Below, in pieces: positions 22,802 through 25,444 of a DNA stretch of 64,000 nucleotides. The notes below the pieces were generated by a model. The model did not search any database. It worked only from the letters and a program-made list of their open reading frames with translations, and was not told the origin of the DNA. A program made the translations under genes and the position numbers. Numbering within the stretch: position 1 is the stretch's first letter; each line of letters starts with the position of its first letter. Source of the DNA: Candidatus Poribacteria bacterium (lineage in GTDB: Bacteria > Poribacteria > WGA-4E > PCPOR2b); contig OZ242351.1 in assembly GCA_965208675.1 (NCBI GenBank), forward strand, positions 416,001-480,000, in the 5' to 3' direction.

Positions 22802-23905
22802 TTACTGCTGTACGTAAGTTTTGTTCAAATAATGGGCGATAATCTCAATATCTTCCTCTAAAAGGAAAAGACCATTTTCAATCATCCGGGAAATGAGTTC
22901 TCTGGTTTCCTCTTCGGACGTGGGCGGCGCATTGTCAACGTCCGCTAATGGATGGCATTGAGAGCACGTTATTTCAAAAAGTTCTAGTGCCTCTGCAGGA
23001 TCATAGCTCGCCTGGTCCAAGCTGGCCGCAACGATGGCATCGGGGTCTTGGGCGGCAGTGTCCGGGTCCTGAATGACATCAGGTACTGGGCTGAACGCCG
23101 ATTGCAGTGCAACTTGTGACTGGCTTGCTTGCATCTCTTCTTTTCTCCGCTCTTTCACCGAATTCTGAATGTCAGGCGTAATCGCAATTAAGTATGCGGA
23201 TACTGTCCACTGTTCTTCCCGGTTAATCGGTTCTCCAATGACGGGTTTAATCGCCATTCGATTTACAAGCCTTACCCAATCCGGCGGAGTGCGGGGGCGA
23301 ACAAGAATAGTTCGTAGGTCGTGGCACTGGACGCATTTCTTCAATAGTACGTCCTGTCCGTCGCGCAATTTTCGTTTGGAAGCTAGTTTATCCAGCGGTG
23401 CATCGTCAGGCAATCCGGCTGTTAGTAACATTTTGTGCGTTCTTTGCATACCGGCTTCGCTAAAGACTTCTTGAGACGTTCGCAGGGCGCGTTCCCGCAG
23501 TGTGAAGGGCACAGACAAGCCGATTAACAGATAGGTACACAACAATAGGGCAGTTCCAATATACGGCATGGCTTCTTCAAAGTGCCTGAAGAAGCGGAGG
23601 ATTGCGATTTTGACCAATAACAGCACGCCGATCGTAATGCCAAGCATCAAGTGGGCAACTGTGCGCGGCGGGAGTTCGATCTGATAGTTCCACAAGCGGG
23701 GCACCATATGCCACATCATGAAGACATAAAGTATCGCATACGAAATACCAATGAGACGATGTATCAACACGAGCGGCGCAGGAGCGGCGCTTGTGCGGGT
23801 TTTTTCATCAAAAGGATAACCCCACAGTTTGTACATTAGGAACACCGCTGCGTTGCCCAAACCTAAGAATACAAGACCAAGTATGGCGCTTGTCGAAGTA
23901 GACAT
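22802..23905 (-). CDS. Membrane-anchored di-haem c-type cytochrome with a 4-TM N-terminal domain
   Basis: Four hydrophobic helices containing His residues; two CxxCH motifs (CVQCH, CSQCH). Start moved to ATG 23905, behind a GGAAGG RBS. Confidence 0.82.
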   Translation of the reverse strand: MSTSTSAILGLVFLGLGNAAVFLMYKLWGYPFDEKTRTSAAPAPLVLIHRLIGISYAILYVFMMWHMVPRLWNYQIELPPRTVAHLMLGITIGVLLLVKIAILRFFRHFEEAMPYIGTALLLCTYLLIGLSVPFTLRERALRTSQEVFSEAGMQRTHKMLLTAGLPDDAPLDKLASKRKLRDGQDVLLKKCVQCHDLRTILVRPRTPPDWVRLVNRMAIKPVIGEPINREEQWTVSAYLIAITPDIQNSVKERRKEEMQASQSQVALQSAFSPVPDVIQDPDTAAQDPDAIVAASLDQASYDPAEALELFEITCSQCHPLADVDNAPPTSEEETRELISRMIENGLFLLEEDIEIIAHYLNKTYVQQ

Positions 23906-24019
23906 ATAGTAATTCCTTCCATTGGGCAGCGAGGCCAGATTGAAGATATTAGAATCAGGCAATTGTAACACAAAGCCGTGCGATTGTCACCACTACTTTA
24001 CCTCGCGGCGATTTTTGCA

Positions 24020-24048
24020 TTGGCGCAGTTTCTATTATGTGATACAAT
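24020..24048 (+). promoter_or_regulatory. sigma70-type promoter TTGGCG-N17-TACAAT with extended TG
   Basis: Hexamer match and spacing, upstream of 24136. Confidence 0.4.
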
Positions 24049-24135: not shown

Positions 24136-24810
24136 ATGAAAAGAAAACTTCTGTTAATGCTAGCGTTGGTTGTGGTTGTGTGCGGTCTTGTATTAACCGT
24201 ACAGAGCCGGATGGGCGGGACGAATGAAGTTCAGCCAATGTACGGCAGCCTGCTTATAGATGGTTATGATTTTAAGAATGATGTTGGTCCAAAAGGCACC
24301 ATAATATATGATGAAGACAAAAATGAATTTAGAGGCACCTACATTGGGCTAAAGATGCCCCAGGGACGGCGTGCGGTCTTCGCATGGCTTTACGACACTG
24401 TCAATCAAAAATCTGAATATCTAGGACCGGTTGGCTGGTTAAGAGTTGATACGGGCGGCAAGAAGAAAGGGAAGTTCGCTATTAAGGTGCCGGATAAATT
24501 CAAGGGCGGAAACTTTGGAAGTTACGAAATAATCGGATTCACAGCCGAGAAAACATCGCTAATAGCCAACGGTACTGAGGTAGTAGAGAAGCCGGCGAAG
24601 CCCGCGGGAAGCAAAATTTTAAAGAAACTGGACCCGGCTTTTTACCTATATGCGGCGCTGCCGAACTCTGACACGCCAATGCACTACTGTGGACACGGGG
24701 GAGATTTCTTTTTTGCGAAGGATTTGGAGAATCAACTCTGTTACGACTGACTGTGCGGCACAACATATTCTAAGTGTAAAGCTGCCGGGTTAAAAGCCCA
24801 CGGCAAATAG
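24136..24810 (+). CDS. Secreted hypothetical protein; candidate selenoprotein (CYDU-LC) if TGA 24748-24750 is read through, otherwise ends at 24750
   Basis: Signal peptide and AAGGAG RBS. The TGA follows C-Y-D and is followed in frame by LCGTTYSKCKAAGLKAHGK-TAG. Confidence 0.65.
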
Positions 24811-25081
24811 CATTTTGAATATGTCCTCGGCTCGTGAAGCTGAGGTAATTCAGATTTATACATAAATACCACAACACTTGAATCTATCGGCTGCCGAATC
24901 ATAGTTGCATCGTTCGAGTTTACCGTAGGCGTGATGCAGTTGAGCGGAAGGCTGGGCGATTGGGTTGTCCTTGCCCCGCCGATGTCACTCGGTGACGAGG
25001 CGTTTTTCTTGGCGCTGCATCAGATGATTGAATGGATTTGCGGCGTTGAGTGTGTTTTAAACTTGTCGGAGGTTAAGCACT

Positions 25082-25444
25082 ATGAGCTATCGCGCACCGG
25101 TACCAGTCTTGCGTATATTTGACGAGGCTAAGGCGAAGGAGTTTTATGTCGATTTCTTGGGCTTCAACGTCGATTGGGAACACCGTTTTGATGACAATGC
25201 GCCGCTCTACATGCAAATCTCGAAGGATAAGTGTGTCATACATCTGTCAGAGCATCACGGCGACTGTTGTCCCGGCGGAGCAATGAAAATTGAAACGACG
25301 GAAATAGATGCGTACGAGAAAGAACTAAACGACAAGAATTACCGGTACTACCGGCCAGGAATAGACGACATGCCTTGGGGCAGCCGAGACATGTCGGTCA
25401 AAGATCCATTCGGCAACAGATTGACGTTTACAGACGCGGTATGA
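25082..25444 (+). CDS. Glyoxalase/bleomycin-resistance (VOC) superfamily protein
   Basis: 'KAKEFYVDFLGF', 'HLSEHHGD', 'PWGSRDMSVKDPFGNRLTF'. Confidence 0.9.
   Translation: MSYRAPVPVLRIFDEAKAKEFYVDFLGFNVDWEHRFDDNAPLYMQISKDKCVIHLSEHHGDCCPGGAMKIETTEIDAYEKELNDKNYRYYRPGIDDMPWGSRDMSVKDPFGNRLTFTDAV

Follow-up and report, generated by a model that had tools for sequence, protein, structure and literature searches.

An exported candidate selenoprotein of Candidatus Poribacteria with a putative selenocysteine insertion sequence beyond its stop codon

Does an in-frame TGA close to the end of a poribacterial gene encode selenocysteine (Sec), and if it does, which RNA element directs its decoding? The question was raised by the gene at 24136–24810 (+ strand) in a stretch of 64,000 nucleotides from a Candidatus Poribacteria bacterium (assembly GCA_965208675.1, contig OZ242351.1, positions 416,001 to 480,000), which is called the window here and to which the coordinates refer. 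In our study, the TGA of this gene was found very probably to encode Sec in an exported protein of an uncatalogued family. We consider it likely that the gene is a selenoprotein gene and, jointly, that its Sec insertion sequence (SECIS) is a distal, bipartite and long-range element. Both conclusions are drawn from sequence comparison, i.e., from the alignment of Sec with cysteine, the conservation of the tail, the Sec machinery's presence, the covariation of two helices and the way in which distal and proximal elements complement each other in their distribution.

The ATG at 24136 was preceded by GAAGGAG, and the frame was open for 204 codons up to the TGA at 24748–24750. When the TGA (+ strand) is read as Sec at residue 205 of a C-Y-D-U-L-C motif, the coding sequence contains 224 codons, composed of the 204 codons, the Sec codon and a tail of 19 residues. 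The read-through product, CYD-U-LCGTTYSKCKAAGLKAHGK at its end, terminated at the TAG at 24808–24810. This extent was supported by the sequence itself, by the tail-bearing homologues and by the coding pattern of the tail. A sequence-only reading had earlier placed the TGA inside a Cys/His-rich tail, and its coordinates and read-through sequence were found as it described them. The C-terminal motif was C202-x-x-U205-x-C207 followed by C214 and H222, and C185 was located upstream in H-Y-C-G-H-G; the conserved Cys/Sec positions were thus five (C185, C202, U205, C207, and C214), an odd number, and H187 and H222 were likewise conserved in the family. A putative N-terminal signal peptide, read directly from the sequence, occupied approximately residues 1–24 (24136–24207, + strand) with MKRK and a hydrophobic core, and its cleavage site is a presumed one. 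The AlphaFold2 (AF2) model contained a helix at residues 2–22 and a low-confidence linker at 22–24, and A-x-A was present right before KEV in the gammaproteobacterial homologues.

The codon following CYD was compared in 58 copies, comprising 55 related loci from species-representative genomes, the window, and two extra tandem copies of the locus L043. TGA was present in 53 copies and a cysteine codon in four, namely TGT in L038 and L062 and TGC in the middle copy of L043 and in L063; a contig end cut the remaining copy (L061). Among the 57 assessable copies, TGA was therefore found in 53 and Cys in four, and the family was Sec-dominant, with a Sec-to-Cys ratio of 53 to 4. Homologues that end at CYD with TAA or TAG, which would have spoken for a true stop, were found in 0/58 copies. 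A protein search at E ≤0.01 found 186 homologues, of which 24 were aligned with the query (alignment A1, 25 rows). In this alignment, 19 of the 24 database homologues terminated exactly at CYD. Three homologues (P0019, P0089, and P0113) contained C-[LIK]-C-G-x-K-Y-x-x-C-x-x-[AV]-G-L-x-x-H in place of the stop, P0017 contained a tryptophan at the Sec site followed by the same tail, and P0016 contained a different C-terminal end, which was probably frame-shifted.

In a second alignment of 26 sequences (A2), C185, C202, Y203, D204, position 205, C207, Y211, C214, and G218 were invariant (26/26), and H222 was nearly so. The tail followed the consensus U-[LIMF]-C-[GSAR]-x-x-Y-x-x-C-x-x-[AS/V]-G-x-x-x-H; its frame and its length (18–19 residues) were kept over Poribacteria, Gammaproteobacteria, SAR324, Entotheonella, and others. 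The column entropy of 54 distinct tails was 0.64, 0.57, and 1.39 at codon positions 1, 2, and 3, respectively, and that of 54 nucleotides of undisputed upstream coding sequence was 0.40, 0.47, and 1.30. Because the frame, the length and the invariant residues were kept and the variation was concentrated at third positions, the tail appears to be conserved as protein-coding sequence. The cysteine aligned to the TGA and the conservation of the 19 downstream residues, with their coding pattern and invariant Cys, Tyr, and Gly, are what the sequence-only reading had proposed to look for. Together with the Sec machinery and the lack of any Pfam or NCBIfam match, they bear out its proposal of a selenoprotein from an unrecognised family that is not thioredoxin-like.

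The source genome was represented by one contig of 4.89 Mb, in which selA, selB, selC (tRNA-Sec), and selD were all found. The tRNA-Sec gene scored 77.5 bits and was reported by ARAGORN as tRNA-SeC with the anticodon tca. Both selB (367.5 bits) and selA (595.6 bits) adjoined the tRNA-Sec gene, and selD (375.8 bits) contained one in-frame TGA. Furthermore, selA was found in 7/7 other tested genomes with the TGA form and in 2/3 genomes with the Cys form only; the third, a metagenome-assembled genome (MAG) of Rhizobiaceae (L063) that may be incomplete, was devoid of selA.

Which element would direct the insertion of Sec? Past the stop codon, within the 3′ untranslated region (UTR), a hairpin of the sequence CCUCGGCU-CGUGA-AGCUGAGG with an 8-bp stem was found at 24825–24845 (+ strand), and it is proposed here as the SelB-binding SECIS hairpin. 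It was present in 32 of the 51 assessable TGA copies and in 0/4 Cys copies. Over the 32 sequences, 93.4% of the cells paired, and 6/8 pairs changed on both sides, with 62 double-change cells; 0/500 shuffles reached the observed pairing, and sliding the partner by 1–3 columns gave 47.7% or less. The loop CGUG[ACU] on a stem of at least 6 bp was present in 31 TGA copies, and L040 contained the variant CGGGU. No T run followed the hairpin in the window. Rfam reported no family in the whole window at gathering thresholds and only chance-level microRNA and small nucleolar RNA rows in 24700–24900 at E ≤10, and a genome-wide count of CGUG-loop hairpins showed no enrichment over other loops.

The hairpin was accompanied by a long-range helix, which was supported by folding, per-locus search and covariation. 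Its 5′ arm, ACAUAUUCUAAGUG, was located within the coding tail from 12 nt past the UGA (24763–24776, + strand), and its 3′ arm, CAUUUUGAAUAUGU, comprised the 14 nt with which the 3′ UTR begins (24811–24824, + strand). The arms paired at 13 of 14 positions, and 0/300 shuffles were as good. RNAalifold, run unprompted on 14 Poribacteria sequences of the class with the distal hairpin (class A, defined below), returned a 14-pair long-range helix together with the hairpin. On the alignment of these 14 sequences, 95.9% of the cells of the helix paired and four pairs changed on both sides, with slid controls at 52.5% or less.

Each of the 32 copies of class A was searched for the longest-range pairing partner of its tail, taken as the best ungapped match by complementarity of the coding positions +3 to +41 to the UTR, with 300 UTR shuffles per copy. 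The best helix started at +13 to +19 after the UGA and ended 0–5 nt before the hairpin in 30 of the 32 copies, and the shuffle p was ≤0.01 in 18 and ≤0.05 in 22 of all 32 copies. Several lineages contained arms of their own sequence that were still complementary: AUUUGAAUUGUA with UACUAUUCAAAU in L039, GUAUGCAAGCUGUA with UGUAGCUUGAAUAC in L040, AUGUGAACUGU with ACAGUUCGCAU in L047, and AAAAGUAUUCAAGC with GUUUGAAUGCUUUU in L051. The mean duplex energy of the arms was −13.3 kcal/mol, as against −8.7 kcal/mol when the 18 nt that follow the hairpin were used.

In linear distance, the UGA of the window was 77 nt from the hairpin and 82 nt from its loop. At their lowest pairs, 24825:24845 in the hairpin and 24763:24824 in the helix, the two structures adjoin, so that the hairpin would emerge approximately 12 nt after the UGA. 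In the proposed mechanism, SelB would bind the 3′-UTR hairpin, and the pairing of 24811–24824 with 24763–24776 would bring the hairpin with its base to a position about 12 nt past the UGA, at the spacing of the proximal SECIS hairpins of the same genome. The long-range helix would in this way make a distant hairpin work.

Three other selenoprotein genes of the genome provided this comparison. selD (L082, C1:4649539-4650462) contained a proximal hairpin from +14 with the loop CGGGG, and a DUF3179 selenoprotein (L073, C1:4075205) with W-U-PLC contained one from +16 with the loop CGUGU; the Pfam match of the latter (E 3.7e-80) ran through the TGA. A Prx-like UxxC protein, with an AhpC/TSA match through its TGA, contained a hairpin at +18. 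The distal hairpin resembles the SECIS of selD and DUF3179, because the loop follows C-G-U/G-G-N and the helix would give it the same effective spacing. The genome scan for a TGA followed by a hairpin was noisy, with 147 mostly spurious candidates, and only those confirmed by Pfam were used. Two paralogous open reading frames of approximately 440–510 residues, at C1:904541 (L074) and C1:2543498 (L075), contained an in-frame TGA in GALDDESC-U-ANGK and a hairpin GAGGGCG-GGUC-CGCUCUC at +20, and no Pfam match was found for them. Both probably encode additional selenoproteins, with a CU motif, that have so far escaped annotation. The candidate at C1:3192587 was, by our own reading, the normal end of a FolD-like gene, and L078 found no support as a selenoprotein candidate.

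Over the family, distal and proximal hairpins were distributed in a complementary manner. The 53 TGA copies were assigned to the classes A, B, and C by their downstream hairpins, with L037 and L056 too short to assess. Class A (32 copies) contained the window, 13 other Poribacteria, 14 Granulosicoccaceae/Chromatiales, SAR324 (L039), Entotheonella (L040), L047, and the third copy of L043. Its hairpin had 7–9 bp and the loop CGUG[UAC] (CGGGU in L040), and was located at +75 to +108 relative to the UGA, in every copy past the stop codon. Class B contained 15 Poribacteria with larger genomes, in which a proximal hairpin CGG[UC]C-UGUAA-GGCCG was found at +22 to +36, whereas the distal one was missing. 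Class C contained four copies (the first copy of L043, L057, L059, and L060), with a proximal hairpin at +32 to +50 and the loop GGUCU or GGCCU.

A canonical bacterial SECIS (bSECIS) scan found a stable proximal candidate in 15/15 class B and 4/4 class C copies. In class A, it found none in 22 of the 32 copies (window included), a stem of A and U with 0.0 kcal/mol in six, and a candidate of −3.2 to −3.7 kcal/mol in three; the third copy of L043 alone contained a stable proximal hairpin. The distal hairpin was absent from 4/4 Cys copies, and a class-C-like hairpin was present in two of them (L038 and the middle copy of L043), which indicates that the potential to form a class C hairpin is not confined to TGA forms. 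The locus L043 of an uncultured bacterium (L043:3100-7305) contained three tandem paralogues followed by a TlpA-like redoxin and a peptidyl-prolyl cis-trans isomerase (PPIase). The paralogues encoded, in order, Sec with a class C hairpin (TGA 3692), Cys (TGC 4571), and Sec with distal and proximal hairpins (TGA 5501), and in this natural array the SECIS types can be compared side by side. A small hairpin, UGACU-GUGC-GGUCA, which spans the initial 14 nt from the UGA and contains the UGA itself, was observed in class B (L013–L036) and in Granulosicoccaceae loci; it occurs wherever the tail begins with U-L-C-G-Q, and the window, with the codons GGC ACA, was devoid of it.

A maximum-likelihood tree was built from 56 copies, with L037 and L061 excluded as too short. 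The 29 Poribacteria formed one group (support 96/80), within which class A formed a clade of 14 rows (100/98) and class B was composed of a clade of 14 rows (100/99) and L013. Class A also spanned the gammaproteobacterial rows, a clade of SAR324, Entotheonella, and L047, and the third copy of L043. Well-supported branches forced the class A label to change at least four times. Each of the four Cys forms represented an event of its own, and two of these events fell on very long branches. The tree was rooted at its midpoint only, and hence the direction of class change cannot be read from it.

The sequence-only reading had proposed another element, i.e., a stem after the UGA that pairs GCGGC (24755–24759) with GCUGC (24781–24785) and ACAU (24763–24766) with GUGU (24774–24777) around the loop AUUCUAA. 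These bases were present, and the loop was devoid of G, as had been described. As a SECIS, the stem was rejected: it breaks in relatives, e.g., L010 and L024, it lacks the loop G, and it fails the canonical bSECIS scan. The stem was not chosen in the minimum free energy fold of 24740–24830, in which the bases that follow the UGA paired with the beginning of the 3′ UTR instead.

Several observations weigh against the proposed distal element. The loop of the window is located 82 nt from the UGA as opposed to the 16–37 nt of the bSECIS model, as given in the excerpts of PMC13188914. Support for the long-range helix was uneven, with a shuffle p of >0.05 in 10 of the 32 copies, and in L044 and L045 the best helix was found in another register. 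RNAalifold, on a MAFFT alignment of the 14 Granulosicoccaceae, found the hairpin and not the long-range helix; MAFFT fails to register the UTRs of these 14 sequences. The per-locus best helices are fitted and therefore lean towards pairing, and many of the loci belong to closely related MAGs of sponge symbionts, so that the cells are not independent events. The presence of both hairpins in the third copy of L043 means that the two types are not strictly exclusive.

How far do these data leave room for other explanations? If the TGA were a true stop, the conservation downstream would reflect an RNA element or the decaying remnant of a longer Cys ancestor. Public gene callers end the protein at CYD, as do the 19 aligned homologues mentioned above, and some truncated product is expected in any case, since bacterial Sec decoding is only partly efficient. 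This explanation is extremely improbable in view of the tail, whose frame, length and invariant Cys, Tyr, and Gly were kept across phyla with variation at the third position, of the lack of TAA and TAG in every copy, and of the full Sec machinery. Alternatively, a near-cognate tRNA might read the UGA as Trp or Cys, stimulated by the downstream structure. Trp was reportedly the major read-through product of the construct with a distant SECIS engineered by Su, Li and Gladyshev (2005), and P0017 contained a W at the site, which is most likely the product of a gene caller with the TGA = W code. The natural homologues without TGA, however, always contained Cys (4/4), which is the signature of Sec, selA was found in all eight TGA-form genomes examined, and the loop of the hairpin resembles those of the proven SECIS type in selD and the DUF3179 gene of this genome; near-cognate reading is accordingly very unlikely.

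The strongest competitor accepts the selenoprotein and assigns Sec insertion to a weak proximal structure in the 19-codon tail, with the UTR hairpin and the helix serving some other role, e.g., to stabilise the mRNA, to regulate translation or the efficiency of termination, or to exert a Se-responsive control by binding SelB. The stem of the sequence-only reading does exist in the window, six Poribacteria copies contained a 5-bp stem with a CGA loop at canonical distance, and the excerpts of the published work (PMC13188914, PMC13326102, PMC12013277) place the bacterial SECIS immediately after the UGA. Nevertheless, the proximal candidates of the copies with the distal hairpin were at 0.0 kcal/mol or absent (22/32, window included), and the candidate stems occupy the same bases as the better-conserved long-range helix. 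Moreover, the distal hairpin was missing exactly in the 19/19 copies with a stable proximal hairpin (classes B and C) and in the 4/4 Cys copies, a distribution that a generic stability or terminator element would not be expected to show. We regard a proximal structure as an improbable source of Sec insertion here, and the distal bipartite SECIS as the preferred reading.

An arrangement of this kind has reportedly been engineered. In Nucleic Acids Res in 2005, Su, Li and Gladyshev are said to have described an artificial E. coli SECIS in the 3′ UTR with an adjacent complementary stretch, which was inefficient. The element of the window would share with the reported construct a SelB-type hairpin past the stop codon, directly preceded by a stretch that pairs with the bases shortly after the UGA and so draws the hairpin up to the codon. 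It differs in being natural and kept by selection in 32 copies of several phyla, with arms that covary. Full-text literature searches in the library used found nothing relevant on a natural distal bacterial SECIS, and the search for Poribacteria with selenocysteine found only unrelated papers. The layout seems to be known in bacteria so far only from the engineered construct. It is reasonably probable that the element represents the first natural bacterial SECIS acting from the 3′ UTR past a stop codon, and that distal and proximal elements were swapped several times in one family.

In excerpts of five published sources, the bacterial SECIS is described as located immediately downstream of the UGA (PMC13188914, a review of 2026; PMC13326102 on BSepDB; PMC12013277 on deep-Sep; and the reviews PMC10778597 of 2023 and PMC7026636 of 2019). 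The bSECIS model (Zhang and Gladyshev 2005, bSECISearch) places the apical loop at 16–37 nt from the UGA according to the excerpts of PMC13188914, which also mention that some elements do not fit the model. Prediction pipelines confirm candidate genes with the bSECIS model, as stated in parts of PMC13188914 and PMC13326102. The window hairpin agrees with the rules extracted from PMC13188914 in its 5-nt apical loop, whose second nucleotide is G and whose third is U/G, and in a stem within 7–9 bp, and its class B and C relatives use an ordinary proximal element. It departs from the canonical element in its distance from the UGA, as said above, and in that its UGA-proximal arm is separated from the hairpin by the stop codon and by 34 nt that are looped out.

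Table 1 of PMC13188914, as available in part, contains 119 prokaryotic selenoprotein families, nearly all with the ID of a domain model. The window protein resembles families of this catalogue, in the parts available, in its single Sec, its CxxU with a nearby Cys, its predicted export and the neighbouring thiol-disulfide oxidoreductase; it differs in its fold, which is not thioredoxin-like, and in the Sec-dominant ratio of 53:4, unlike most of the families. The Pfam, TIGRFAM, and NCBIfam models of this table gave no match with the window protein, the cd and PTHR models being outside the comparison (PMC13188914). The 'FCYXU motif-type TonB-dependent receptor' of the same excerpts contains a short motif of a similar kind, but no match was obtained with the model of that family, NF049945. 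GOS_A of the 2008 ocean survey, which was compared by counts only, had two Sec and 155 Cys members in the excerpts of PMC2398784, unlike the Sec-dominant family described here. As judged from its sequences, this exported selenoprotein family is genuine and previously uncatalogued. According to the record titles, it is centred on bacteria associated with marine invertebrates.

If the proposed element is true, a natural distal SECIS relaxes the 16–37 nt rule, and the absence of a widespread, Sec-dominant family of marine symbionts from the catalogue of 119 families is explained. Searches filtered by SECIS would have systematically missed such selenoproteins. The position of the bacterial SECIS would be evolutionarily fluid, with a natural intermediate between the in-frame arrangement of bacteria and the 3′-UTR arrangement of archaea and eukaryotes, and the family would provide a testable model for the evolution of 3′-UTR SECIS usage. 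It would also offer a ready-made design for expressing selenoproteins with unchanged residues after Sec. A new exported Sec family without a thioredoxin fold and, outside Poribacteria, in an operon with a reductase and a PPIase would raise the question of which chemistry needs Sec outside the cytoplasm of a symbiont.

What the protein does is a separate matter. The Pfam search found 0 families at E ≤1, and the NCBIfam search found nothing beyond a PepT row at chance level (E 0.094; 11.5 bits, with the cutoff at 255). When 1.84 billion cluster representatives were searched exhaustively, only 40 relatives were found at E ≤1e-3, mostly fragments. No longer or fused homologues were found, which is weak evidence, and a search of the ESM Atlas with the Cys homologue P0019 returned clusters of 'hypothetical protein' only. 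The AF2 model, built on the 26-row alignment (predicted local distance difference test 84.3, predicted template modelling score 0.78), contained eight strands in the segment of residues 33–174, together with two short strands and, at 211–222, a C-terminal helix.

An exhaustive VIA-align search with the model placed Cu,Zn superoxide dismutase (SOD) or domain 2 of its copper chaperone (CCS) in all of the top 12 ranks (Z 7.0–4.9, 97–123 residues, root-mean-square deviation 2.8–4.0), followed by generic immunoglobulin and fibronectin type III folds (Z ≤4.6). The modelled protein would resemble Cu,Zn-SOD/CCS in an eight-stranded beta-barrel and in a short Cys-rich C-terminal tail (U-x-C) after the barrel, comparable to the CXC tail of CCS. 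It differs in that the set of metal-binding histidines of SOD was not evident and no sequence relationship was found. Foldseek found no match in the Protein Data Bank (PDB) at E ≤1e-3, and a sequence profile search of the PDB found no meaningful match. A resemblance to SOD is also weakened by its Z of ≤7.0, a level that the tool calls common, by the lack of a Sod_Cu match in Pfam, and by a probability of 0.5% from hhalign against one of the three SodC of the genome. Because the Z is at the common level and sequence support is lacking, the SOD fold is taken as a lead only.

A TlpA/CcmG-like redoxin of 180–205 residues, with an AhpC/TSA-Redoxin match and the active site FWATWC-x-PC, was present directly downstream on the same strand in 20 of the 27 non-Poribacteria loci. 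In those 20 loci, it was followed by a parvulin-type PPIase of 270–320 residues. Among the remaining non-Poribacteria loci, L059 contained the redoxin and then the contig end, five ended too early, and L045 contained neither partner. The third operon gene of the Rhizobiaceae MAG (L063:5416-6939) matched the hidden Markov model of the operon PPIase and the SCO1/SenC copper-chaperone domain of Pfam, with no Pfam PPIase domain reported; it was the only direct hint of a copper connection.

From this operon context in other phyla, we tentatively propose, at somewhat less than an even chance, that the flexible C-terminal tail of the protein carries a selenol/thiol redox centre outside the cytoplasm, which would be kept reduced by the TlpA/CcmG-like reductase. 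A dedicated periplasmic reductase and a folding catalyst would thereby service the tail. Among selenoproteins in general, a very high Sec-to-Cys ratio, such as that of this family, speaks for catalysis over a purely structural role. The main functional alternative would be a soft-metal site of the copper type that must stay reduced. Counting against such a function for the window protein, redoxin or PPIase partners were found near the gene in 0/28 Poribacteria loci and were not present in the window, and the window genome contained no close PPIase orthologue, its best score being 33 bits as against 158–475 among the operon copies. Residue 86 (24391–24393) was Tyr in the window protein, whereas at least 90% of the homologues contained His (FAWL-H-DTVNQ). 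If H86 is a metal ligand, the window copy would differ from its homologues at this position.

Around the gene, a promoter-like site, TTGGCG-17-TACAAT, was found at 24020–24048 (+ strand) by a consensus scan (9/12), and it is weak since the number of such sites was not above that of shuffles. A terminator-like hairpin with a T run, likely the real 3′ end of the transcript, was found at 24983–25007 (+ strand), approximately 140 nt beyond the distal hairpin. Upstream, on the − strand at 22802–23971, a divergent gene encoded a membrane protein of 389 residues with two CxxCH haem-binding motifs (Cytochrome_CBB3 at 25 bits, below the cutoff of 27 bits). This protein was 77% identical and syntenic in L024 and was not beside the gene in L013; it is possibly linked in function to the selenoprotein in its Poribacteria clade. 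The upstream genes of approximately 440 amino acids in the window, L039, and L060 were unrelated to one another. Downstream, a glyoxalase-family gene was present at 25082–25444, followed from 25555 by a large gene that was read by eye as purL. Genes for proteins similar to the formylglycine-generating enzyme (FGE-sulfatase) were observed at L013:5796-6659 and L024:4782-5804, less than 1.2 kb away from the gene of the selenoprotein; they belong to two different Poribacteria clades and lie on different strands, and their proximity may be due to chance.

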